This document shows positions 6,409 through 63,116 of a DNA stretch of 64,000 nucleotides, piece by piece; position 1 is the first letter of the stretch; each line of letters opens with the position of its first letter. The translations under genes were made by a program, and so were the position numbers. Under the pieces are notes generated by a model, which ran no database searches, had not been told where the DNA came from, and saw only the letters and a list, made by a program, of their open reading frames with translations. The DNA comes from an uncultured bacterium (lineage in GTDB: Bacteria; Electryoneota; Tariuqbacteria; Tariuqbacterales; Tariuqbacteraceae). The DNA lies in assembly GCA_964421875.1 (NCBI GenBank), contig CAYQZD010000002.1, positions 8,747 through 72,746 of the forward strand, given 5' to 3'.

Positions 6409-6804
6409 TTGCAGGTTATAATGTCGAGAAGGCATCACGATTGGATGGCGCAGGCCGAGGCTGATTTTAAGCACGCCGTTAATTCCAAGGAATGGGGCGA
6501 TTACGAATGGGCTTGCTTTGCGTCTCAGCAGGCGGCGGAAAAAGCGATAAAAGCCTTGATTGAGAGCAGAAATGGGAAAGCGATTGGTCACTCATTGAAA
6601 AAGTTACTCCAGCTTATTAATGTTGACGATAAGAATCTTATCGAAGCAGCTATAAGACTGGATAAACATTACATTCCCGCCCGATATCCTAATAGTTTCG
6701 ATTCCGGCGCTCCCAGTGATTATTATACTATCAAAGATGCTGAACAAGCGGTAATAGATGCGGAATCGATAATAAGGTATTGCCAAGACAATTTAGCAGG
6801 TTAA
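6409..6804 (+). CDS. HEPN-domain protein (putative toxin of a HEPN/MNT pair)
   Basis: ...QQAAEKAIKALI...RLDKHYIPARYP matches the HEPN domain pattern with an R-x(3-6)-H-like motif. Its stop overlaps the start of the nucleotidyltransferase gene. Confidence 0.7.
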   Translation: MQVIMSRRHHDWMAQAEADFKHAVNSKEWGDYEWACFASQQAAEKAIKALIESRNGKAIGHSLKKLLQLINVDDKNLIEAAIRLDKHYIPARYPNSFDSGAPSDYYTIKDAEQAVIDAESIIRYCQDNLAG

Positions 6805-7140
6805 ATGTCTTCGGAAACATATATTGAGTATCTTCGTAAAGAAGATGTAATCCCCATTGTTAAAGACGCCGCCGAGAAGATAAAAAAACTGCCTAATGTC
6901 TTGCGCATCGGATATTTTGGCTCCTTTGTCCGCAACGACCAGATTCCCGGTTCGGACATCGACATCTTCATCGAATTGGCGGATGATGACCGCAGATGGT
7001 TCGACCGGGCGGGGGATTTCATAGAATATTTTGATAAAGTCCCCTGCGTGGTGGAAATCTTCGCTTTTACCCGGCAGGAGATGTCGAATAAGGATAATAA
7101 GTTCTATCAAGAGGTTTTGCAGGAATTGGTTGAATTGTAA
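6805..7140 (+). CDS. Minimal nucleotidyltransferase (MNT) domain protein (putative antitoxin partner)
   Basis: GYFGSFVRNDQIPGSDIDIFIEL is the GS-x(n)-D-x-D Pol-beta-type NTase motif. 111 aa, directly follows the HEPN gene. Confidence 0.75.
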   Translation: MSSETYIEYLRKEDVIPIVKDAAEKIKKLPNVLRIGYFGSFVRNDQIPGSDIDIFIELADDDRRWFDRAGDFIEYFDKVPCVVEIFAFTRQEMSNKDNKFYQEVLQELVEL

Positions 7141-12235: not shown

Positions 12236-12319
12236 GCCGGAGTGGTGGAATAGGCAGACACACCATCTTGAGGGGGTGGCGCCTTAACGGGCGTGCCGGT
12301 TCAAGTCCGGCCTCCGGCA
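12236..12319 (+). tRNA. tRNA-Leu (anticodon GAG), type II with a long variable arm; CCA not encoded
   Basis: Acceptor GCCGGAG/CTCCGGC. D-arm GTG..CAC with a large loop. Anticodon stem CCATC/GGTGG, loop TTGAGGG (U33, G37). Variable arm CGCCTTAACGGGCG. T-arm GCCGG-TTCAAGT-CCGGC. Discriminator A. Confidence 0.85.
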
Positions 12320-12321
12320 CA

Positions 12322-12375: not shown

Positions 12376-12765
12376 TTATTCTAAGGCGCGAAGGTGTTTC
12401 AAAACGCTGATTTTACCATCGAAACCGAGGTTCAACACCCGGTTGATGATTTCCAGGTCAAGGTTTGAGAGGATGATGGGACGGGGCTGTGCAACCGTTT
12501 CTTTCATCGCAGGTTCCTGGACTTTTTCAATTCGGGGAGCGGGTGCGCTTACCGGCGCGCCTTCGCTCCGCCCGAATAGCTGCCCTTCGGTAATACCCAG
12601 CCCGTCGATTAGTTTATTTATTGTGTCCCTCCGAGCTTTTCTTTTTCCGGTCTCAATTTGACCGATGGTTACGGGGCTGACCCCTGACCTTTTAGCTAAC
12701 TCGTTTTGGGAGAAGTTCAATCGTTTTCTCCAAAACCTTAAGTTTTCGCCGAAGTTCTCATCCAT
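12376..12765 (-). CDS. XRE-family helix-turn-helix transcriptional regulator
   Basis: LRFWRKRLNFSQNELAKRSGVSPVTIGQIETGKR HTH_XRE pattern, plus a C-terminal extension of unknown function. Confidence 0.7.
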   Translation of the reverse strand: MDENFGENLRFWRKRLNFSQNELAKRSGVSPVTIGQIETGKRKARRDTINKLIDGLGITEGQLFGRSEGAPVSAPAPRIEKVQEPAMKETVAQPRPIILSNLDLEIINRVLNLGFDGKISVLKHLRALE

Positions 12766-12907
12766 AATTGACCTTTCTATTAAATTAGTTTCACAACAGT
12801 TGCCTCAAAAACACGGCAGCGTTAATAAACAGGGCATACTATAATCCGCGAAATATTCTATAAAAATTATGCGGAATACTGACACATTTCTGCGTGGAGT
12901 GATGTGC

Positions 12908-13456
12908 TTATGCGTTTATTATATTCTTGGAAAATCGCTGCAGGTACTTGACAAACTTTTGTTTTTTATCGTTGTCCAACGCCAACGCTCTATGGATAAT
13001 TTCGAGTTGAATCAGGCTGGCTCTGATTTTTCCGTCACCTTCGGAGTCGAGGTTTACCACCGATTTCATCGCTGTATCGAATTGCACCAGCCGCCGCTCA
13101 AATTCCTGCCGCATCATCTTCGCCCGTTCTCGTCCCACCCGGACTTTCTGCGCGCGGTCCCGCTTTTCTTTCAGCCTTTTCAAGCCTTTGCGGTAGATAT
13201 CGCGAATTCTTGCGGCGGAATCCTGGTGTGCGCTTTCCCATAACTTAGAATCCTCAATCAACTGCGAGATAGTCACCAGGGAGCGTCCAGTGCCGAATTC
13301 AAGGGCTATTTCACCCAGTATTTCATGCAGGAGAGGGGTATGGTAGGAACGTTCTACCGGATAGCAGTTATTCTTTAGAAAGAGAATAACCGTGGTGGTA
13401 GCGAGGTTCAACTTCTTCGATACGTCTATGACCCGGATTGGTTTTGCAGAAGGCAT
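12908..13456 (-). CDS. Hypothetical protein with an IF2_N-like N-terminal HTH segment and a charged coiled-coil-like C-terminus
   Basis: KPIRVIDVSKKLNLATTTVILFLKNN resembles the IF-2 N-terminal domain. The rest is K/R/E-rich. Confidence 0.35.
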   Translation of the reverse strand: MPSAKPIRVIDVSKKLNLATTTVILFLKNNCYPVERSYHTPLLHEILGEIALEFGTGRSLVTISQLIEDSKLWESAHQDSAARIRDIYRKGLKRLKEKRDRAQKVRVGRERAKMMRQEFERRLVQFDTAMKSVVNLDSEGDGKIRASLIQLEIIHRALALDNDKKQKFVKYLQRFSKNIINA

Positions 13457-13684
13457 TTTGAATACTCCTCTGCGGAGGCTTTCATTTTATTACATAATGT
13501 GAAAACAGCGGCGGCATTAGAACGCGAACTGCTATTTTCTTTCTTCGTTGTATAGGTTTACGATAGAAATCCTTTATGAGGATTTATCGTTCAAGTCTTG
13601 GTTTCGGAATACTACCTCCCTAGGTTAATATTTAAATTAATCGAAAACAGTTAGATTCTTATTCTAAATCCAAATATCCGGCAA

Positions 13685-15163
13685 TCAGCGAATGATAATC
13701 ATCTTGACCGATTGCATCTCCCGGTCAGTTTCTACCCTTAGTACATAGAAACCATTGGACAGATTCAGGGAATTCGCGGTTTCAGGCATTTTAGCGAATG
13801 AAACGGTATTTAGAAGCGCCACCCGCCGCCCTAAAATATCATAGAGCGAAGCTTTCTTTATGATAGACTCTCCCGCGTTGAATGATATTTCTTTGAGACT
13901 GAGGGGCTGATGACCATATGATGTCTGTGATGGTCTCTGCCACGCAGGATTCAGTCTATGCGCATAAAGCAGTTGATGGTATCCTCGGTCAACCCGGCCC
14001 CGGTCGAAGGATTGGGTTTGAACGCCGGTGTAGTACTTCAGTCCCGCTTCGGAAACGCTCCGCGATCCGCTGTCGATTTCACGGCTGAAAACTGTAAGCA
14101 AATATGACTCACCCAGATTGGGTTCGCGAACCTCCTCGCCGCGACCGTTGACGCCATTGGCGGGCAGCGCGGACCGGTACTGTGAAAACCTCTGCAAAGG
14201 CCTGCCGTCGAAGCCCCCGAAACTGAAGCAGACCGAGCCGCTCTGATTGAACCAGGTATTGTGATGAAATCGATTGCTTTGAATCTGCGCCATAGTGTAA
14301 TCGACGGCGAAGATGGGAGAAATTCCGGGGTCGTTTTTCAGGCATATATTGTCAAAGATTCCGCAGTGAACGCAAGGTTCCGAGTTGGGGTCGGTGCCTC
14401 GGTACAAATGAATCCCCGGCGCTCGAGAAGTAATGATGGTGTTGTTGAATACCTGAGTGTTAATGGTGCGGTAGATGGTTATCCCGCCCGCGGGTTCTTC
14501 CCATTCTCCGTTATGATACAGCAGATTGGCGTAAATTTGATTATCGACGCTGCCTTTGATTCTGATGCCGGCTTCACCGCAATCGCTGATTACATTCCCG
14601 TATATGCGGGCGCCGAAGATGGTATCTTCAGGATTAGACTGTCTGACAAATATCCCTATCTGGCATCCGTAAATATTATTATAACGAACCGTTACATTCG
14701 TACCCGCTATCTTCACCCCTGGAGTGTGTCCGTAGTATGAGTTTCCCGTGGCGTTGCTGAAATGAAAGTTTTGGATGACTACATTGTGAGTCGAGTATTC
14801 GACCGCGATACAAGGTTCAAGCTGCGAAGATACCGCCTGAATATGCGCCCGTTCGCATTCATTCCATTCCACTCCCTGAAACACAACCGGACTGCTTAAA
14901 GTATGACTTTGCTCGACAGAAATATGTATAGTGGACAGGGTCGAGCTTGAATCCACAGTATAGACGCCGGGAAGAACGTTCACAGTATCTCCGGGGAGCA
15001 GTGTGTGAAAACCGGGATGACAAGCGTATCCGGGATGGGGCCAGGGATTTTCATAAGTTCCGAGGAAAGGAGGAATACGATTGTTGTCATCCACCCAATA
15101 AACACCACCCCAGGAAATGCAGGAATACAGGATGCCTAGGAGAAATGCAATTTGCGGTCGCAC
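13685..15163 (-). CDS. Secreted right-handed beta-helix (pectate-lyase-fold) protein with a T9SS C-terminal sorting domain
   Basis: Signal peptide MRPQIAFLLGILYSCISWGG. Repeated N.xI..N / G..I.G parallel beta-helix rungs (VVIQNFHFSNATG, VTVRYNNIYGCQIGIF, IYGNVISDCGEAGIRI). C-terminal ...LYDILGRRVA...GFYVLRVE...KMIIIR CTD. Confidence 0.65.
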   Translation of the reverse strand: MRPQIAFLLGILYSCISWGGVYWVDDNNRIPPFLGTYENPWPHPGYACHPGFHTLLPGDTVNVLPGVYTVDSSSTLSTIHISVEQSHTLSSPVVFQGVEWNECERAHIQAVSSQLEPCIAVEYSTHNVVIQNFHFSNATGNSYYGHTPGVKIAGTNVTVRYNNIYGCQIGIFVRQSNPEDTIFGARIYGNVISDCGEAGIRIKGSVDNQIYANLLYHNGEWEEPAGGITIYRTINTQVFNNTIITSRAPGIHLYRGTDPNSEPCVHCGIFDNICLKNDPGISPIFAVDYTMAQIQSNRFHHNTWFNQSGSVCFSFGGFDGRPLQRFSQYRSALPANGVNGRGEEVREPNLGESYLLTVFSREIDSGSRSVSEAGLKYYTGVQTQSFDRGRVDRGYHQLLYAHRLNPAWQRPSQTSYGHQPLSLKEISFNAGESIIKKASLYDILGRRVALLNTVSFAKMPETANSLNLSNGFYVLRVETDREMQSVKMIIIR

Positions 15164-15390
15164 AATACAATTTTTAAATTTCGTTGAAATATAGTACTGA
15201 TTATTTTCAACTAAATTCGTGGGATAATATACACTAATTATAGGAAAAATGCAAATAGTAATAACGATATAATTAAAATTATTTGCATTATCACTGCTTT
15301 ATCAAGTTGCCTTTAGTTACTAATATGTTGAGAGTGTTGATAAATAACTTATGCTGTAACTTAATATTTATATTAACAAACACTTAGTCA

Positions 15391-16072
15391 TGTCATCCTG
15401 AACGAAGTGAAGGATCTCCATTTTTCAACAAGTATATAATTAACAAAGAGATTCTTCGCTTCGCTCAGAATGACAACGCTATCTATCAACGCTCTCATAT
15501 TAAGCGACTCAAACATAGTATTAATTAAAATGGATAATAGTGGACAGTGTAAGAACATAAAGGAATTTATCACCTGAATGTAGTGAAAGATTTCATCTTG
15601 TTTATTAACTTGAAATTAAGTATAGATTCTTCACTCCGCCTGCGGCGGGCTCAGAATGACAACATTAACGATGTACACTATTAAACGACGTGATTAATAT
15701 ATTTGGCTCTTCTCCATTTTAGTTGCAAGTATCAAGTACAAATCAAAGCTGGGGCATTAGCCCAAAAGAAGCGCGCTTGTCATTCCGAGCGAAAGCCGGA
15801 ATCCAGTTTTTTCTTAAAAGAGATTTTCCTGGACTCCCGCTTTCGCGGGAGTGACAACGTTTTGAGAATTAATCATCAGAGCAACGAGCGTTATTCCGAA
15901 AAGCAAGATATTTTGCAACTACTTTGGAGATGAACCATATATCTTATTAATCGAGCTTCATGCAAAAGTCAGGAATTTCCGAGTTTGTCATTCTGAACGT
16001 AGTAAAGAATCTATTGTTTATTAAGATGTTAGATAAAACTGAGACCCTTCACCTCGTTTAGGGTGACACTTC
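15391..16072. repeat. Array of four ~85-nt composite inverted-repeat (MITE-like) elements in an AT-rich non-coding region
   Basis: Elements at 15391-15476, 15571-15663, 15778-15858 and 15986-16072. Each has a ~27-nt arm TGTCA-NNN-TGAACGAAGTGAA-N'N'N'-TC, a ~30-nt AT-rich spacer, and the inverted arm. The NNN/N'N'N' positions covary (TCC/GGA, TTC/GAA, CCC/GGG, TTCCG/CGGAA). Confidence 0.75.
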
Positions 16073-16470
16073 GTGCCGATTTTTACCAGTAATTCAATCG
16101 AATAAATTAATGCGAGACCAATTGTAGATAAGTCTCATTTTCAGTAAAACGGAAATGCGATTAATATTATATGAAGTTAAGCAAAAAGGTTGTCATTATT
16201 TACCCACTTTGACGCGTGAAATTTTGAAATTTTAATCTAAAAAACTTAAATTAATTAGATTATCCCTCATAGGAGGATTTCGGCTGCGATTTCGCATCCC
16301 GAAAGATGAAAATATATGCTTTTCAAGGAAGCGGTAAGACCATTTTTCAAAGCGAAATCAGGTCTTCGCCCGATTAATCGAGCTAAAGCCCTGGCTTTAC
16401 AGAAAAAGACTCTTGGTAGATAAGGACTTAACCATAGGTCTGCCGCTATTAACAGTGAAATAAATGGAAT

Positions 16471-17787
16471 ATGCCGCAGAGTGATATAAGTTCCGGAGTT
16501 ATGGGATCCGGCGTGGTGGGAGCCGGAGGCGCCGGATTTCCTTCACACCTGAAACTCAAAGCGGCGGTGGACACGGTAATCGGCAATGGGATTGAGTGTG
16601 AACCGCTGTTGTCTCAGGATAGGGCGGTGATGGTTCACCGTCCCGAAACCGTAATCAAGGGACTGAGTTTACTGGCTGAAGTTGTGGGGGCGCGGAGAAA
16701 GATAATCGTTCTCAAGAAGAAGTATGCCGACGCGATGCGGGCGCTGGAACCTTTCTGCGATGAGTGTGAAATCATCTTGACGCCGGATTATTACCCCGCC
16801 GGCGACGAAGTCGAGATTGTGAAATTCCTCAGCGGCGAAACTGTCCCCGAAGCCGGGCTCCCTCTCGATGTCGGTGTGGTGGTCAACAATGTGGAAACCC
16901 TAACGAACATCGCCCGCGCCTGCGAGGGTATCCCCGTGACGCGCAGGTTCGTCACCGTCTGCGGTGAAGTAAAGAAACCAACGGTCCTAAGTGTTCCCCT
17001 CGGAACGAAAATCAGCGATATTGTGGACAGATGCGGGGGAGCGACCACGGACAATCCGGTCTATTACACCGGCGGGCCGATGATGGGGGAGATTGCCGGC
17101 GCCGATTCTCCGGCGCTGAAAACCACCACCGGCATCTTCGCGCTTCCCCAGGAACATGAGCTGGTCCGCGCCAGGTCGCTGCGGATGGAATACATCCTGC
17201 GCCAGGCGCAGTCCGCCTGCACCTCCTGCAGGCTCTGCACCGACGCCTGCCCCAGATACCTGCTGGGGCACGCAATCGAACCTCATCGCGTTATGCGCGC
17301 CATCGGCTTGACTCAGGATATATTCAAACGCGAACTCACCTCGGCTCTGTTATGCAGTGAATGCGGCGTTTGTGAATACGCCTGCCCTATGCGGCTATCT
17401 CCGCGAAGGATCTATCGGCAAATCAAAGAATATTTGGCCGCCGAGGGAATTGAGTATCCCCGCAGGATGACCAGACTCAGCGACCACCCGATGCGGGAAT
17501 CCCGCCGTATTCCCGGCGGGCGTCTGCTGGAAAGACTGGGGCTTAAGCGCTACGAGGTCCGGATGGACTACGACGATTCCGGCTGGTCTCCCCAGGAGGT
17601 CGCTCTTCCCCTCAAGCAGCATATCGGTCTTCCCGCGCAGCCGGTGGTCTCACCCGGAGACAGGGTGATTGAAGGAGAGGTGATAGCGGAAATTCCTCCT
17701 GGAGCGGTCAGCGCCCGGCTGCACGCTTCAATCGACGGTAAAGTGACGGCTGTTGACGATGACAAGATAATCATAGGGGCGGTATGA
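16471..17787 (+). CDS. PduS-like RnfC-family Fe-S flavoprotein (NADH-binding; two 4Fe-4S motifs)
   Basis: Begins almost directly with GVVGAGGAGFPSHLKL (NADH/FMN-binding motif shared by RnfC, PduS and NuoF) without the RnfC N-terminal barrel. SLBB-like region. CTSCRLCTDACP and CSECGVCEYACP ferredoxin motifs. 438 aa, matching PduS architecture. ATGA-coupled to a PduT-like gene. Confidence 0.7.
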   Translation: MPQSDISSGVMGSGVVGAGGAGFPSHLKLKAAVDTVIGNGIECEPLLSQDRAVMVHRPETVIKGLSLLAEVVGARRKIIVLKKKYADAMRALEPFCDECEIILTPDYYPAGDEVEIVKFLSGETVPEAGLPLDVGVVVNNVETLTNIARACEGIPVTRRFVTVCGEVKKPTVLSVPLGTKISDIVDRCGGATTDNPVYYTGGPMMGEIAGADSPALKTTTGIFALPQEHELVRARSLRMEYILRQAQSACTSCRLCTDACPRYLLGHAIEPHRVMRAIGLTQDIFKRELTSALLCSECGVCEYACPMRLSPRRIYRQIKEYLAAEGIEYPRRMTRLSDHPMRESRRIPGGRLLERLGLKRYEVRMDYDDSGWSPQEVALPLKQHIGLPAQPVVSPGDRVIEGEVIAEIPPGAVSARLHASIDGKVTAVDDDKIIIGAV

Positions 17788-18350
17788 ATCCATTCGAAGA
17801 GAAAAAAAACGCGCTGGGGATGGTGGAGTGGAACTCTATCGCCCTGGGAATTTTCGCCGCCGACGCGATGCTCAAAGTCTCCGAAGTGGAATTGATTTAC
17901 GCCAACACTATCTGTCCCGGTAAATACATTTGCGTGGTCAGAGGCGATGTGGCGGCGGTGAAGGCTTCGGTGGAAGCGGGAAAGGACGCTTCACCTGTGA
18001 GTGTGGTGGATGAGATGGTGATTCCCAATCTGCACTCCACGGTATTCCCCGCCATCAACTCCCTCACTTGCGCGGAGAAGGTCGACGCGGTGGGCATCAT
18101 CGAGACCTTTTCCGCAGCTTCAGCTTTGGTGGCGGCGGATCGAGCCGCTAAGACCGCGGAAATTCTACTGCTATCGGTGAGGCTGGCAACCGGATTGGGG
18201 GGGAAGTCTTTCGTGGTGGTGACCGGGGAAGTGGCGGCGGTGCGTTCTGCAGTGGAAGCCGGCGCGCGAACCGCTGAAGACAAGGGGCTGCTGGTGTATC
18301 GAACGGTGGTGCCTCAGCCGGAGCCCCGCTTGTTTGAAAAATTGAATTAG
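17784..18350 (+). CDS. Tandem BMC-domain shell protein, PduT-like (BMC-T with a conserved Fe-S-ligating Cys)
   Basis: Two BMC domains: ALGMVEWNSIALGIFAADAMLKVSEVELI...VVRGDVAAVKASVEAG and AVGIIETFSAASALVAADRAAKTAEI...VVVTGEVAAVRSAVEAG. TICPGKY matches the PduT cluster-ligating Cys strand. C-terminal GLLVYRTVVPQP matches the PduT tail. 188 aa. Confidence 0.8.
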   Translation: MNPFEEKKNALGMVEWNSIALGIFAADAMLKVSEVELIYANTICPGKYICVVRGDVAAVKASVEAGKDASPVSVVDEMVIPNLHSTVFPAINSLTCAEKVDAVGIIETFSAASALVAADRAAKTAEILLLSVRLATGLGGKSFVVVTGEVAAVRSAVEAGARTAEDKGLLVYRTVVPQPEPRLFEKLN

Positions 18351-18387
18351 AATACTAATAACTCAATAATCATCGGGAGAATCGACT

Positions 18388-18729
18388 ATGAAAATGAACG
18401 TTAGGGAACATGAACAGTTCGTAGTGGTAGAACTCAAGGGAAAGATTATGGGAGGACCTGACGCCACGGTTTTTCACGATATGCTTAAGGAATTAATCGC
18501 CCAAGGCCGGCGGCGGTTCATCTTAGATTTGAACAAGGTTGACTGGATGAACAGTTCCGGTCTCGGTATCCTGATTTCCGGGATGACTACTATCCGCAGC
18601 GCTCAGGGGGAACTGAAATTAGCCAGAATCTCGAATAAAATCAAGAGCCTGCTGATGATTACCAAACTGATCACAGTATTTGACAGCTATGAAACGGTAG
18701 AGGACGCCGCCGCCAGTTTCGCTAAATAA
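18388..18729 (+). CDS. STAS-domain anti-sigma-factor antagonist (SpoIIAA/RsbV-like)
   Basis: 113 aa. ...ILDLNKVDWMNSSGLGILI... STAS pattern with the conserved phospho-Ser region. Confidence 0.8.
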   Translation: MKMNVREHEQFVVVELKGKIMGGPDATVFHDMLKELIAQGRRRFILDLNKVDWMNSSGLGILISGMTTIRSAQGELKLARISNKIKSLLMITKLITVFDSYETVEDAAASFAK

Positions 18730-18805
18730 TCCCGGGTATTCAGAGAAAATTTATTCAGAGAACAAAAGCATCAATTGACGGCTGCTTAATGAGGTCCTAT
18801 TCGCG

Positions 18806-20188
18806 GTGAGTGAGATTATCGATTTACTGCAATCGGTCCGCCTTGGCGTTGCTGATTTTTCCGGCAAGCTCTTATCCAAGGAGGATTCGGAGGACTGCGC
18901 GTTTCTGGTAAAGCGCGTGGAAACGGGCTTGCTCCGAGCTGTCGAACTGACTCAAGAGCACGAGCGCAGGGACCGGCTCTTCGATGAGCTTTACTACAAT
19001 GTGGGCTCGAAACTCAACGCGACCTTCGACCAGAACGAGTTGCTTGATAACATCATAGATGCGCTGGGACAGCTTATAAGCTTCGATGCCGCCGGGATTT
19101 TCCTGGTAGATACGGATACCGGGAATATTGAGGCAGAAGTTATCAAGGGATACCGGAAAGAGTTCCTGGGCAGCGTGCATCAGAAAGTTGGCGAGGGCGT
19201 CCTCGGCTGGGTGATAGAAAGCGCCCAATCGGTCAGACTTGCCGACGTCCGAAATGACGACCGTTATATCGACGCCCGTCCCGAAACCCGTTCGGAGGTC
19301 GCGGCGCCGATGGTTAGCGAAGGTAAGGTGATTGGCTGTATCAACCTGGAAAGCGATAAAATCGCCGCCTTCAGCGAAGAGGATGTCGCCCTGCTGGAAA
19401 CATTCGCCACCCAGGCTTCGCTGGCGGTGCAGCGAGCCAGATTGTACCGTGAGTTAGTCGATACCAAGCGCTTGGAAGAGGAGGTGGCGCTGGCGAGGAA
19501 GATTCAGACCTCGCTTCTGCCCAAGAAGCCGCCTCAATTTCCGGGGTACGATCTGGCCGGAATGAACATTCCTTCAACTGAAGTCGGGGGAGATTATTAC
19601 GATTTCATTCGTTTAATAGGCGGGGGTTTGGGATTGGCAATCGCCGACGTCTCCGGCAAGGGAATCGGAGCCGCGTTTATTATGTCCGGCGTGAGGGCTT
19701 CGCTCAGGGCGGAAATCCGTCACAACCTTGACCCCAGTATGTTGATGCACAAAGTCAATCACTTTGTTTATGAGAGCACCGACTCCGGCAGTTTCGTGAC
19801 CGCTTTCTACGGAGTTTTGAATGGCGATGAATTCAATTATGTCAACGCCGGACATAATCCGCCTATTTTGATGCGAGGCGACCAGAGTTTCATTATGCTG
19901 GAGGACGGCGGATTGGTGCTGGGGCTGGCGGAGGAACAGCATTTCCGCGAGGGGAGGATACATCTGGAACCGGGTGATACGCTATTGCTATACACCGATG
20001 GCGTGTCGGAGGCTATGAATCGTCAAGAGATGGAATTTGGCGCGGAACGTTTGATTGAGGCGTTAAAGGAATCTCAGGGAATGAGCGCCAATGTCAAGGT
20101 GGATTTCATCCACCGCAATGTAAGAGATTTCGCCGGCAGGTCGAAACAAGCGGATGATTTGACCATAATGGTGGTGAACAAAATATGA
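18806..20188 (+). CDS. GAF-domain PP2C-family serine phosphatase (RsbU/SpoIIE-like); GTG start
   Basis: N-terminal GAF (GVLGWVIESAQSVRLADVRNDDRY). C-terminal PP2C/SpoIIE domain (EVGGDYYDF, LGLAIADVSGKGIGAA, LLLYTDGVSEA, DDLTIMVV). Confidence 0.85.
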   Translation: MSEIIDLLQSVRLGVADFSGKLLSKEDSEDCAFLVKRVETGLLRAVELTQEHERRDRLFDELYYNVGSKLNATFDQNELLDNIIDALGQLISFDAAGIFLVDTDTGNIEAEVIKGYRKEFLGSVHQKVGEGVLGWVIESAQSVRLADVRNDDRYIDARPETRSEVAAPMVSEGKVIGCINLESDKIAAFSEEDVALLETFATQASLAVQRARLYRELVDTKRLEEEVALARKIQTSLLPKKPPQFPGYDLAGMNIPSTEVGGDYYDFIRLIGGGLGLAIADVSGKGIGAAFIMSGVRASLRAEIRHNLDPSMLMHKVNHFVYESTDSGSFVTAFYGVLNGDEFNYVNAGHNPPILMRGDQSFIMLEDGGLVLGLAEEQHFREGRIHLEPGDTLLLYTDGVSEAMNRQEMEFGAERLIEALKESQGMSANVKVDFIHRNVRDFAGRSKQADDLTIMVVNKI

Positions 20189-20625
20189 GAGAGGTCGAAA
20201 AATTGGTAATTCCCTCAGACCAGGATGAACTTCCCCGGGTCGACGAAGCCGCCGATAGAATCGCCAGGGAGATGGGTTTTAGCAAGGAGGAGCGCGATGA
20301 TATCGCTATTTCCGTATCAGAAGCGGTCAACAACGCTATCCTGCACGGCAATCGCGGCGACAAGAAGAAGAAGGTGATTATCACCTTCTTCAAGCGCGAT
20401 GATTCCCTGATAGTTAAAGTTAAGGACCAGGGCACCTGTTTCGATCCTGAGCGCGATTTACCTCAGGACCCCACCTCGCCGGATAATATTCTGAAGGAGA
20501 AAGGGCGGGGGGTTTTCATCGTGCGGCATTTGATGGACGAAGTAAGCTATAACTGCTCCTCCGACGGGACGGAGATGGTGATGGTCAAGTTGAAAACGCC
20601 CCGCGAAATTCTGTCTTCTAAGTAA
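20185..20625 (+). CDS. RsbW/SpoIIAB-type anti-sigma regulatory factor (Ser/Thr protein kinase, HATPase_c)
   Basis: 146 aa, EAVNNAILHGN N-box and GRGVFIVRHLMDEV G-box. Start overlaps the phosphatase stop. Confidence 0.8.
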   Translation: MREVEKLVIPSDQDELPRVDEAADRIAREMGFSKEERDDIAISVSEAVNNAILHGNRGDKKKKVIITFFKRDDSLIVKVKDQGTCFDPERDLPQDPTSPDNILKEKGRGVFIVRHLMDEVSYNCSSDGTEMVMVKLKTPREILSSK

Positions 20626-20696
20626 TGAAAGAAAATAACACAACCGTGGTGCCGGGTCTCCGCATTCGGCGCCAAATAATAATTATTATTGAATAT

Positions 20697-20722
20697 GCTG
20701 TCGACTGCGGAGAGTCGACAGC
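20697..20722. terminator. Hairpin (family C REP-like) plus T-run after the partner-switching operon
   Basis: GCTGTCGACT-gcggag-AGTCGACAGC followed by ACACTTTT. Confidence 0.45.
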
Positions 20723-40070: not shown

Positions 40071-40104
40071 ATGTCAGGTCTTTAGCGAAGCGGAGACCTG
40101 ACAT
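40071..40104. repeat. Family D hairpin (perfect copy) between apt and gpsA
   Basis: ATGTCAGGTCTttagcgaagcggAGACCTGACAT, an 11-bp stem. Confidence 0.75.
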
Positions 40105-42276: not shown

Positions 42277-42528
42277 GTAGGGTGGGTTCTTAACCCACCA
42301 ATTTACAAGTCATTCCGGCGCAGCCGGAATCCTTCTTCATAGGGGCGAACGGCCGTTCGCCCCTACCGGCATCCAATAACTGGGAACCACTGTGTCGCAG
42401 AGTCCCCGCACTCTGCGACATCACCGGCGGCTCCGAATAGTTTGCCCTGCAGATTGGTGTTAAGTTATGCCTTTAACGAAACGGAGACCTGACGTTTGAC
42501 TTGTTCCCACCCTCCCGCGTGGGAATGC
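42277..42528. repeat. Mosaic cluster of REP-like hairpin modules (families B, A, F, C, D', E)
   Basis: B: GTAGGGTGGGTTcttAACCCACC (42277-42299). A: gtcATTCCGGCgcaGCCGGAATcc (42309-42332). F: GGGGCGAACGGCCGTTCGCCCC (42342-42363). C: tGTCGCAGAGTccccgcACTCTGCGACa (42392-42419). D': 42463-42498. E: TTCCCACcctcccgcGTGGGAA (42502-42525). Confidence 0.8.
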
Positions 42529-48329: not shown

Positions 48330-48585
48330 ATGTCAGGTCTATTATAAATCCGCAGGTTGGGTTCTTAAATGATGTGCCCGCCGGGTCCCCGCACCCGGCG
48401 GAAACCCGTAGGGTGGGTTCTTAACCCACCAATTTACAAGTCATTCCGGCGCAGCCGGAATCCTTCTTCGTTGAAGCGCTTTGCGAACCGCCCTATTATC
48501 AGGGCGTTCAATTAAACGCCCCTGCCGGCAACCGATAATATGTGCGTTATGTCAGGTCCTTAGCGAAACGGAGACCTGACATTCA
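48330..48585. repeat. Mosaic REP-like cluster (families C', B, A, D) downstream of mutS
   Basis: CCGCCGGGTccccgcACCCGGCGG (48377-48400); GTAGGGTGGGTTcttAACCCACC (48408-48430); gtcATTCCGGCgcaGCCGGAATcc (48439-48462); ATGTCAGGTCcttagcgaaacggAGACCTGACAT (48549-48582). Confidence 0.8.
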
Positions 48586-54722: not shown

Positions 54723-54948
54723 GTGCCGCAGAGTCCCCGCACTCTGCGGCACAACACCTGCGCTCTCAATTGTAGGTCGGCTTATTCAAAGCCGACAACC
54801 GGCAACAGGTAACCGGAAACCGGCAACCATAAACTTACTGAGCTGCCAGGTCCCCGCACCCGTTAGTGTTGCGTTATGTCAGGTCTTTAGCGTAGCGGAG
54901 ACCAGACATAATTTTTCCCTCCTTCCCACGCTCCCCCGTGAAAATGCA
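54723..54948. repeat. Mosaic REP-like cluster (C, GTAG-hairpin, C', D, E')
   Basis: GTGCCGCAGAGTccccgcACTCTGCGGCAC (54723-54752); GTAGGTCGGCTTattcaAAGCCGAC (54772-54796); D at 54874-54910; E' at 54923-54948. Confidence 0.8.
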
Positions 54949-56075: not shown

Positions 56076-56273
56076 CGTTCCACGCTCCGGCGTGGGAATG
56101 CATAATGGATTGTCATTGCCAACGATTTGTAGGGTGGGTTTCAACTCACCACCATCTGTCATTGCCAACGAAGTGAAACAATCGGTAAATTATACCGCGT
56201 TATGTCAGGTCTTTAGCGCAGCGGAGACCTGACATTTTACCTCGTTCCCACGCTCCCGCGTGGGAATGCAGAC
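56076..56273. repeat. Mosaic REP-like cluster (E, B variant, A variant, D, E)
   Basis: TTCCACGCtccgGCGTGGGAA; GTAGGGTGGGTTtcAACTCACC; TGTCATTGccaacgaagtgaaaCAATC (stem covariation); ATGTCAGGTCtttagcgcagcggAGACCTGACAT; TTCCCACGCtcccGCGTGGGAA. Confidence 0.8.
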
Positions 56274-57194: not shown

Positions 57195-57470
57195 GAGAAT
57201 GCCCCGAATCTGTCATTCCCGCGCAGGCGGGAATCCGGAGCGTGGGCTGCAAGCGAGGACTTGATAATGTGCCCGCCGGGTCCCCGCACCCGGCGGTATG
57301 AGATTCAGCTCTGCAATATGCGTTATGTTATGCCTTTAGCGCTGCGGATACTACCGTGCTGTCGAGTCTCCGCACTCGACAGCTAACCATTGAAAAACCT
57401 CGTGCCGCAGACTCCCCGCAATTTGTCCGAGAATGCCCCGAATCTGTCATTCCCGCGGCCAGTGCGCCGT
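57195..57470. repeat. REP-like cluster with two ~45-nt direct repeats (gagaatgccccgaatctgtcattcccgcg) plus C' and C variants
   Basis: Copies at 57195-57243 (with hairpin TTCCCGCgcagGCGGGAA) and 57424-57458. CCGCCGGGTccccgcACCCGGCGG at 57272-57295. GCTGTCGAGTctccgcACTCGACAGC at 57357-57383. Confidence 0.75.
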
Positions 57471-60499: not shown

Positions 60500-60702
60500 G
60501 TGCCCGCCGGGTCCCCGCACCCGGCGGCATTGAACGGCGGATTTCTCGTTCCCACGCTCCCGCGTGGGAATACAGACATATCTGCTGTCGACTCTCCGTA
60601 GTCTAAAGCATATTCAGTATTAATAATAACTTAAATAAACGTTTTCGTAGGGTGGGTTCTTAACCCACCAATTTACAAGTCATTCCGGCGCAGCCGGAAT
60701 CC
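60500..60702. repeat. Mosaic REP-like cluster (C', E, B, A)
   Basis: CCGCCGGGTccccgcACCCGGCGG (60503-60526); TTCCCACGCtcccGCGTGGGAA (60548-60569); GTAGGGTGGGTTcttAACCCACC (60647-60669); gtcATTCCGGCgcaGCCGGAATcc (60679-60702). Confidence 0.8.
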
Positions 60703-60968
60703 TTCTTCCAGCTTTTACTCGGAATCCTCCTTCTGTTTCCCCCCTTTTTAAAAGGCGGGCAGGGGAGATTATAGCGGCTTTAAACGCTATTACCGCAAAA
60801 TCGCCCGGGCCTTCAAGTATAAGCCCCTAAGTATAAATCGACTTTTTTCACCAAAAACTTGACAAATGTGCAGCAATTTTGCATATTACCTGAGAGGGGG
60901 CTTTTAAAAACCGGGGGAGCGGCGGTCCCGGGTTAATCACCCCGCCCCCATCATTTCTATCGGAATAA

Positions 60969-62837: not shown

Positions 62838-63116
62838 CTGTGAAGTCCTCCGAATGTTAATCGTTGATAATCTATAACAAAAGCGGCTTTAATGCATGAG
62901 TAACACTTTGTCGTTTGAAGCGCAAACGTCATCAGCCGTACGGCTGATCCTTCTTTTTCGGAGGGATTCCGGCTGCGCCGGAATGACGATATGGTGCGCG
63001 ATGCTTTTAGGAATACGGACTAACTCCGGGAATATAGTTCCATAATTTAATTTTTATAAATCAAAGCCCGCCTTATAATGCTATCCTTGACCTGTTGACT
63101 TGCAGGCCTGCCGACT

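Follow-up and report, generated by a model that had tools for sequence, protein, structure and literature searches.

Hairpin repeats of the repetitive extragenic palindromic (REP) type are among the commonest non-coding repeats of bacteria, and the half of them that carries a GTAG tag has a dedicated enzyme, RAYT. The CGTC-tagged REP super-family carries an unpaired CGTC tag, "changed to TGTC ... in many repeats", on a stem of 8–9 bp that starts from A-T pairs, followed by a loop of 4–5 nt and a 3-nt tail near CCA (PMC3733652). Its members are mostly inverted dimers with spacers of 20–100 bp and often unlike arms, their stems and loops vary within a family, and copies are found between and inside genes; Neisseria dRS3, Rickettsia RPE-4 and RPE-6 and Wolbachia repeats are included (PMC3733652). 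These repeats were described as "not associated to transposase genes" and as repeats that "apparently lack a dedicated transposase", and elements with bulges may have escaped the authors' search (PMC3733652). In Neisseria, dRS3 hairpins also build the NIME arrays, in which they alternate with lower-GC spacers of 50–150 bp in a wave of GC content; these arrays vary between strains, lie beside variable genes and were described as Neisseria-specific, their role being itself a hypothesis (PMC1797815). Here we describe an array of TGTC-tagged hairpins in a 64,000-nt stretch of DNA (the window) from an uncultured bacterium of the Tariuqbacteraceae (Electryoneota; contig CAYQZD010000002.1, positions 8,747 to 72,746). 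We consider it rather probable that this array represents four non-autonomous copies, two of them decayed and all without an open reading frame (ORF), of a hairpin unit that has a GIY-YIG nuclease as its partner and is mobilised through it.

The array extends from position 15391 to 16068 and consists of four inverted pairs (E1 to E4, Table 1) with arms of 28–39 nt, at the site given in a preliminary description of the sequence. The spacing of 180–210 bp estimated there was approximately right, the measured start-to-start distances being 176, 211, and 208 nt, and the AT-rich, gene-free region of 1.3 kb proved to be a gap of 1307 nt with 36% GC (the window has ~51%), the largest between chosen ORFs in the window. 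The TGTC tag is present on seven of the eight arms; the E2 left arm lacks it and begins TTATCACC. The first stem pair is A-T in all arms. Those of E1, E2, and E4 have nine stacked positions (two of them G·A) and a 3-nt loop, and the distal stem of the E2 right arm is longer by 14 nt. The E3 arms belong to a plainer subtype, in which an 8-bp stem closes a GAAA loop or the stem has a bulged A, and both arms end in CCA, the tails of the other arms being CTC or CTA. The arm consensus first proposed, TGTCA-NNN-TGAACGAAGTGAA-N'N'N'-TC, thus describes E1 and E4 well and E2 loosely, and does not apply to E3. All compensatory stem pairs listed with it (TCC/GGA, TTC/GAA, CCC/GGG, TTCCG/CGGAA, and ACTCCCGC/GCGGGAGT) were recovered. 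E1 right differs from E1 left at four positions, each compensated inside its own arm, and the pattern TGTCA-N3-8-GARCGAAR has three matches in the window compared to 0.04 expected from shuffles.

Read on the TGTC strand, an arm comprises the unpaired TGTC tag, a basal stem of 4–8 bp that starts with an A-T pair and varies in sequence while pairing is kept, a TGA/GAA internal loop, a small distal hairpin (typically GC-GAA-GC) and a TC(yc) tail, and one element is made of two such arms in inverted orientation with the tags outermost. Judged from its sequence, the TGA/GAA loop would form a T-A pair and two tandem G·A pairs, so that the arm would be one uninterrupted helix with a GAA cap. Read from the opposite strand, the loop gives pyrimidine-pyrimidine mismatches, and each arm therefore has one functional strand, which is opposite in the two arms of a pair.

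Compensatory changes keep the hairpin of each arm intact. Public collections were scanned with the pattern TGTCA-NNN-TGARCGAAGYGAA-NNN-TC, in which the triplets were left free. Viral contigs contained 86 copies, with perfectly complementary triplets in 84 and six triplet types; over the viral and genome scans together the triplets were fully complementary in 223 of 236 copies (seven types), so that copies elsewhere, instead of lacking the stem covariation noticed in the window, share it. A looser anchor pattern, in which only TGTCA, TGA, GAA, and TC were fixed and 4–40 nt were allowed between them, found 187 additional arms and none in the reversed sequence; 173 of these 187 had complementary triplets. 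The distal parts of the listed pairing arms were mostly self-complementary as well (GC-GNA-GC, AC-GNA-GT, or longer stems), and a few anchor-pattern arms held a nested copy of the whole module. Among 65 distinct 32-nt arms from other genomes, standard pairs filled 96.5% of the pair cells and changes on both sides were seen in 72 cells, in five of the seven pairs, the remaining two being invariant. None of 500 shuffles reached the observed values, and pairing dropped to 20–46% when partners were slid. We also parsed 87 pairs, in which the basal triplets differed between the two arms in 64 and the distal parts in 73, while both arms were self-complementary in 72. As unlike arms each remain self-complementary, it is the fold of each arm that is conserved and not the pairing of arm to arm.

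A partner gene of these arms is found in other genomes. In the annotation of a Planktothrix agardhii plasmid, a 94-aa "GIY-YIG nuclease family protein" lies inside an arm cluster, and one contig each of Saccharibacteria and Gracilibacteria has a like ORF between arms, at arm-to-arm intervals of 300–500 nt. A tblastn search over 1.63 Mb of arm-selected loci returned five such genes; all five have tags on both sides, 32–147 nt away, and their products are 53–66% identical across Saccharibacteria, Gracilibacteria, Cyanobacteria, Syntrophales, and one viral contig. The arm-bracketed nuclease has 90–130 aa and is a stand-alone, bare GIY-YIG domain (Pfam GIY-YIG, E about 1e-16), and the closest solved structures are the UPF0213 proteins 1zg2 (BH0048) and 1ywl (EF2693). 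A 2006 survey of the GIY-YIG superfamily placed proteins of this type in its prokaryotic Slx1-like group and considered the UPF0213/Slx1-like family, which has no assigned function, mostly vertically inherited and possibly involved in repair. The clade described here has the same bare domain; unlike that family, it has repeats on both sides, varies between strains in its presence, and is well conserved across phyla at the identities given above.

The linkage was also observed in the reciprocal direction, in metagenome loci of the JGI collection chosen by protein similarity only (the best 80 of 588 relatives, from 600 candidate stretches). A TGTC- or CGTC-tagged hairpin was located at most 250 nt from the ORF in 70 of these 80 loci, and on both sides in 53, at distances of typically 15–70 nt; of the ~350 tagged hairpins in the loci, 224 were within 250 nt of the ORF. 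Measured with an anchor pattern fixed before the loci were fetched, arm density fell from 4.37 per kb close to the gene to 0.19 per kb at greater distance, a 23-fold difference. The commonest layout was arm(+), 10–35 nt, ORF, arm(−), with an ORF that often reached 23 nt into the downstream arm or stopped 1 nt short of it. Gene-less pairs have this same geometry, except that the spacer stands in place of the gene. To connect these loci to the window, we trained a covariance model (R1) solely on 43 arms adjoining GIY-YIG genes in the metagenome loci and ran it over the whole window, unfiltered. Its six best matches, from 49.3 down to 19.1 bits, all fell in the array, and nothing elsewhere in the window scored above 17 bits.

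By analogy, gene-less pairs such as those of the window may be read as standing to the nuclease unit as MITEs (miniature transposable elements with inverted repeats) or REPINs stand to their parent elements, and the nuclease may be a candidate for the missing enzyme of the CGTC/TGTC repeat class. Eukaryotic Slx1 is a structure-specific nuclease. The bacterial protein might likewise recognise the folded arm, or a cruciform extruded from the pair, and cut there, and host repair or recombination between arms would then copy, delete, or shuffle units. As a proposal, such cutting and repair would yield clusters, changes of copy number between strains, and the lack of target-site duplications. More tentatively, and with less confidence than we place in the origin of the array itself, two TGTC hairpins and a Slx1-like GIY-YIG gene of ~95 codons could make up a minimal mobile unit of ~400 bp that occurs across about 20 phyla and phages, with gene-less pairs as its non-autonomous offspring.

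Several observations weigh against a nuclease-driven origin of the array. GIY-YIG enzymes hydrolyse DNA without a covalent intermediate and have no strand transfer of their own, and a copying mechanism must therefore be assumed. Neither tblastn nor a six-frame HMM search found a GIY-YIG gene or remnant in the window (best HMM hit at E about 8), and its copies are accordingly ORF-less members of the arm family. Arms next to a nuclease gene are a minority (five genes and more than 400 arms in 1.6 Mb), and the E3 arms, being of a different subtype, score weakly with R1. The nearest arm had its commonest orientation in 39 of 59 cases upstream and 39 of 61 downstream of the gene, only about two thirds. 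In viral contigs, the more distant GIY-YIG genes (44% identity) are devoid of arms, which confines the link to a single clade. The association as such is one of position, as read from sequence, and the four published CGTC families were linked to the array through their written description.

Three Planktothrix agardhii plasmids, 94–95% identical in this region, show that the arms turn over between strains: they differ by whole pairs (84 nt) and by half-arm units of 21–24 nt, and the bracketed GIY-YIG clade is itself variably present. Between pglX and drmA, one strain has the GIY-YIG gene together with arms, and the remaining two have a PIN toxin-antitoxin pair in this slot. That a slot carries different cassettes by strain agrees with the main rival explanation, in which the arms are targets, the GIY-YIG gene is a free-standing homing endonuclease copied in by repair, and the pairs spread by some other route. 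GIY-YIG homing endonucleases cut element-free sites (PMC1564403), the ORF lies between two arms of an otherwise ordinary-looking pair, and arms far outnumber nuclease genes, all of which speaks for such an enzyme. We nevertheless consider this unlikely, since arm and nuclease sequences are both conserved across phyla, which fits their transfer as one unit, and since the 23-fold enrichment at the gene comes with several copies and half-arms, like the repeat clusters at RAYT genes. Moreover, no second candidate enzyme turned up by which pairs could spread otherwise.

Besides the plasmid comparison, arms and half-arms were seen in other arrangements. In the Planktothrix agardhii plasmid NZ_LR882964.1 (L204), arm pairs and half-arms lie within an annotated 4.7-kb coding sequence (CDS) of the MmeI/PglX methyltransferase type, at positions 15404-15597 and 17093-17274, which belongs to a DISARM/BREX-like defence locus. 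The strain indels in this CDS are multiples of 3 nt (24 and 84) and would therefore not shift the reading frame. A half-arm comprises the tag and the 5' strand as far as TGAR(C), followed by 6–11 nt, and runs of one to five of them adjoin a full arm on the outside; half-arms occur in unrelated taxa (L028, L047, L070, L072, L077, and L204; for example L047 2230-2480 and L204 18543-18610). A Bacteroidaceae metagenome-assembled genome (L081, 3450-4240) contains about eight tandem units of 105 nt, each with a single arm TGTCATGTTGAGCGAAGCGAAACATC and no inverted partner, so arms can also amplify within a longer tandem repeat.

Copies of the arm are widespread. The genome scan found at least 120 loci in about 20 phyla, isolates included: Acidobacteriota, Bacteroidota, Chlorobi, Ignavibacteria, Chloroflexota, Nitrospirota, Nitrospinota, Planctomycetota, Verrucomicrobiota, Bacillota, Desulfobacterota, Alpha- and Gammaproteobacteria, Gemmatimonadota, Armatimonadota, Latescibacterota, Calditrichota, Caldisericota, Cyanobacteriota, and the candidate phyla Saccharibacteria, Gracilibacteria, and Parcubacteria. 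Isolates with copies are Mucilaginibacter SG564, Calothrix PCC 7716, and Chloroflexales ZM16-3. Copies without any repeat annotation are also found on plasmids of Planktothrix, Calothrix, Oscillatoria, Granulicella, Hymenobacter, and Novosphingobium, one of them under a "hypothetical protein" CDS. Deposited phage genomes had almost none.

By form, compared through the written description of the published families, the arms of the array belong with the CGTC/TGTC-tagged REPs. They share with them the tag, the A-T first pair, the inverted dimers that often have unlike arms, the variable stems and loops, the dispersed copies, which lie between and inside genes, and the lack of an associated transposase gene, and the E3 right arm fits the description of CGTC-1 (family 1) exactly. 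Most arms here differ in having the TGA/GAA loop and a 3-nt GAA apex, where the published stem is continuous, and a tail that is mostly CTC. As a variant, the G·A-loop arms would probably have escaped the 2013 search. They further differ in breadth, the same 26-nt arm being found in about 20 phyla and CGTC repeats in five in the 2013 survey, and in bracketing a GIY-YIG gene; that survey reports none and, on other classes of gene, says only that transposase genes were monitored. With REPINs or BIMEs and their RAYT ("REPtron") the common traits are two inverted hairpins, an unpaired 5' tag, no target duplication, and an enzyme gene flanked by clusters of its own repeats. In contrast to these, the tag is TGTC, the enzyme is a hydrolytic GIY-YIG nuclease instead of a Y1 HUH transposase, and the arms cross phyla and viral contigs, whereas REPINs are described as species-specific and vertically inherited.

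The array itself adds one more example to a known type of repeat, and what is new is the family of G·A-loop arms, together with its breadth and its partner nuclease. On its own the window gives a modest result. The wider link offers a concrete candidate for the missing enzyme of the CGTC/TGTC-tagged half of the REP repeats and points to a possible role for some members of the uncharacterised UPF0213/Slx1-like family. If it is true, a GIY-YIG nuclease would be the missing partner of the CGTC/TGTC REP super-family, or of part of it, and bacteria would have a form of repeat mobilisation that uses neither transposase nor recombinase. We found no literature that pairs GIY-YIG with REP, REPIN, RAYT, or REPtron or links it to bacterial MITE-like repeats in a library that is incomplete, and earlier work may exist. 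Searches of the literature for the exact arm sequences and for the spurious peptides gave nothing relevant, and a prokaryote-virus MITE survey (PMC11602168) had no matching text. Annotation would gain too: the arms yield spurious ORFs of the SEAKNL, HPERSEGS, and FASLRMT types, a short-read contig ends within the array here, and arms lie within an annotated Planktothrix CDS. The SEAKNL type had been noted for the window, where the ORF 15388-15573(−) indeed translates as ...VVILSEAKNL...RSFTSFRMT*.

The preliminary description had left three options for the array, of which miniature transposable elements or a DNA-hairpin recognition array fit best and a family of small RNAs finds little support. 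It had also proposed a search for a RAYT/IS200-like gene. None was present among 30 ORFs of the window scanned with Pfam, these ORFs included no other transposase, and no gene of either kind recurred beside copies in 194 loci of other genomes. For the latter, ORFs within 2.5 kb of copies were clustered with a cut-off of 80 aa and ranked by number of loci, a procedure that missed the GIY-YIG genes; the only recurrent neighbours were shared phage structural genes and two-component regulators. These searches bear on a classical MITE derived from an insertion sequence (IS) with a DDE transposase and TGTCA...TGACA terminal inverted repeats. The elements are short, repeated, and non-coding and have TG...CA ends, as such a MITE would. 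Yet flanking target-site duplications of 3 nt or more were found in none of 77 non-redundant pairs, with two boundary offsets tried, which makes a classical MITE unlikely. No IS with TGTCA...TGACA ends and no transposase occurred near copies, and the arms of a pair are usually unlike and each self-complementary, so that we give this origin hardly any credence.

Other known elements were rejected on their defining features. RAYT-type REPs carry GTAG or GT[AG]G and not TGTC. Integron attC sites have RYYYAAC and GTTRRRY core sites, the elements here end in TGTCA and TGACA(A), and the scanned ORFs include no integrase. CRISPR arrays have identical direct repeats, which are missing here; the core motifs of hammerhead and other ribozymes do not fit, and Rfam is silent on them; and the 3-nt bulge of a K-turn is lacking. 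No transposase lies in the long arm-to-arm intervals of L017 and of the low-GC phage contig 2808606664, which contain phage genes and non-coding repeats.

A role in RNA was considered as well, in which the hairpins would act as 3'-end stabilisers, terminators, or small RNAs on the pduS-like operon. As predicted, the gene downstream of the array encodes a PduS/RnfC-like product according to Pfam and is followed by a gene with a BMC (bacterial microcompartment) domain. With Rfam 15 no family reached its gathering score, whether the region was searched at E up to 10 or the whole window at gathering thresholds. Below threshold, the E3 right arm gave matches to reported small RNAs, WsnRNA46 of Wolbachia (the best, 29.7 bits; threshold 65.3) and FtrB of Francisella, the consensus of both of which holds the same tagged hairpin. 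Such matches speak for an RNA, as do some G·U-type cells in the covariation, the location of other tagged hairpins of the window in convergent or co-directional gaps, as for REPs, and the argument that many REPs are transcribed (PMC3733652). The array itself, on the other hand, lies between divergent genes. The elements are symmetric on both strands, each having a functional-strand arm on either strand without strand preference, and promoter- and terminator-like sites in the region are in no excess over shuffles. With two of the four elements decayed, and with the array missing from relatives as described below, we regard a function in RNA as improbable.

In relatives whose PduS-like protein is 61–69% identical, the gene order of the operon is kept (pduS-like, BMC, STAS, SpoIIE-type phosphatase, kinase-like ATPase, 3-hydroxyacyl-CoA dehydrogenase, acetate kinase). 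The genes upstream differ, being fliD/fliS/flgM or, in L199, a lipoprotein gene, so that the array sits at a break in synteny. Where the upstream region is covered, the gaps of the relatives measure 256–570 nt and contain no arms; L196 and L197 have tagged hairpins at other positions. An intergenic alignment with L199 (69% identical) showed no conserved blocks by which insertion points could be placed. That the array lies upstream of the pduS-like operon, which had been thought noteworthy, looks incidental, as relatives with the upstream region covered keep the operon without the array. No effect of the array on the pduS-like operon is indicated, and nothing points to control of the microcompartment operon. 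The simplest reading of the window array is that of passenger repeats, two of them decaying, at a synteny break.

The location exactly at a synteny break, ~3 kb from a tRNA-Leu gene, would also suit a NIME-like recombination array. So would the architecture, in which tagged hairpins of 48% GC alternate with spacers of 22–130 nt at 17–38% GC, and the cassette exchange beside the arm cluster in Planktothrix. More precisely, the spacers within pairs have 22–30 nt and 17–20% GC, those between pairs 90–129 nt, and the spacers overall 31% GC. Change between strains and variable neighbouring genes are common to both kinds of array. NIME arrays, however, are long and numerous, with spacers that fall into repeat families, unlike the one short array of four pairs in a bacterium of the FCB group. 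A recombinase gene was neither present in the window nor recurrent near copies, the role of NIMEs is only a hypothesis (PMC1797815), and the GIY-YIG link would be left unexplained. This possibility appears even less probable to us than a function in RNA, though not as remote as a classical MITE.

The four pairs are diverged copies, as Tandem Repeats Finder reported no unit of ~190 nt and simple or recent tandem duplication was rejected. E2 and E4 share an ACGTAGT apex and an 11-nt spacer stretch, TTGTTTATTAA, theirs being the only spacers in the region with such a stretch in common, and are therefore related to each other. Folded as single-stranded DNA, E1 and E3 were far better than shuffles (z −4.9 to −6.8; E3 pair z −5.4). 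E2 and E4 did not surpass the shuffles (z about −1.2 to −1.5), for which reason we regard them as decayed. As to an assembly artefact, a concern raised at the outset, E4 is confirmed by an independent Logan assembly contig from a public run (L195), which is 100% identical to window positions 15911-20716 and ends inside the array. There is no independent confirmation for E1 to E3, a unique 24-mer for which was absent from the JGI metagenomes.

Table 1. Array arms and flanking features, in window coordinates; R1 is the covariance model built from arms next to GIY-YIG genes.
Feature	Position	Strand	Remarks
AT-rich gap with the array, no credible gene, between divergent genes	15164..16470	.	only ORFs inside are repeat translations
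E1 left arm TGTCATCCTGAACGAAGTGAAGGATCTC	15391..15418	+	R1 47.3 bits, E 1.5e-9
E1 right arm TGTCATTCTGAGCGAAGCGAAGAATCTC	15448..15475	-	R1 49.3 bits, E 4.8e-10
E2 left arm, degenerate TTATCACCTGAATGTAGTGAAAGATTTC	15567..15594	+	67% identity to E1 left; R1 partial 8.6 bits
E2 right arm TGTCATTCTGAGCCCGCCGCAGGCGGAGTGAAGAATCT	15623..15661	-	R1 28.3 bits, E 7.7e-5; 14-nt apex insertion
E3 left arm TGTCATTCCGAGCGAAAGCCGGAATCCAG	15778..15806	+	R1 19.1 bits, E 0.015; tail CCA
E3 right arm TGTCACTCCCGCGAAAGCGGGAGTCCAG	15829..15856	-	8-bp stem, GAAA loop, CCA tail; R1 12.1 bits
E4 left arm TGTCATTCTGAACGTAGTAAAGAATCTA	15986..16013	+	R1 37.2 bits, E 4.9e-7; confirmed in L195
E4 right arm TGTCACCCTAAACGAGGTGAAGGGTCTC	16041..16068	-	R1 30.6 bits, E 2e-5; confirmed in L195
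PduS/RnfC-like flavoprotein gene, flanking	16471-17787	+	Pfam Complex1_51K, RnfC_N, SLBB, Fer4
BMC shell protein gene, flanking	17784-18350	+	Pfam BMC
Beta-helix protein with type IX secretion system (T9SS) sorting domain, gene flanking	13685..15163	-	Pfam Beta_helix, NosD, Por_Secre_tail

The recorded protein P0001 (424 aa) is 100% identical over 97% of the 438-aa PduS/RnfC-like ORF, from which we infer that the called start of this gene lies 14 codons further in, at ~16513. On the other side of the array, the tRNA-Leu(gag) gene occupies 12236-12320, and between it and the array the minus strand (12376-15163) carries an HTH_3 regulator, a 182-aa protein without Pfam match, and the beta-helix T9SS gene. 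This three-gene set next to tRNA-Leu is missing upstream of the pduS-like gene in relatives; it may have been inserted as a small island whose end is at the array.

Further tagged hairpins occur at ~10 other sites within the window. A second tagged family, TGTCAGGTCyTTAGCGnAnCGGAGACCwGACA, has copies at 40072-40103, 48550-48581, 54877-54908, and 56203-56234; each copy is preceded by GCGTTA, the apex is of the GCGAAGC type as in arms of the array, and the copies lie in convergent or co-directional gaps. A composite repeat is present three times (42277-42334, 48408-48465, and 60647-60704) and consists of a GTAG-tagged hairpin GTAGGGTGGGTTCTTAACCCACC, 5 nt, and a dRS3-like hairpin aGTCATTCCGGCGCAGCCGGAATCC; single dRS3-like hairpins are found at 57211-57237 and 62962-62991(−). 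Eight hairpins with the loop GT(C/T)CCCGCAC (at 42402, 47901, 48385, 54733, 54850, 57280, 57366, and 60511) have stems that vary yet pair, for example CAGAGT/ACTCTG, CCGGGT/ACCCGG, and TCGAGT/ACTCGA, and all eight are on the plus strand though gene orientation flips at ~48 kb. The large intergenic gaps of this genome are mosaics of several hairpin families. Adjacent genes for a HEPN protein and a minimal nucleotidyltransferase at 6409-7140 resemble a toxin-antitoxin pair, and similar pairs lie downstream of the operon in L198. At 56111-56185, a half-arm TGTCATTGCCAACGA, a GTAG-tagged hairpin, and the full arm TGTCATTGCCAACGAAGTGAAACAATC come one after the other, and it looks as if one repeat had landed at the apex of another, with duplication of the 5' half.

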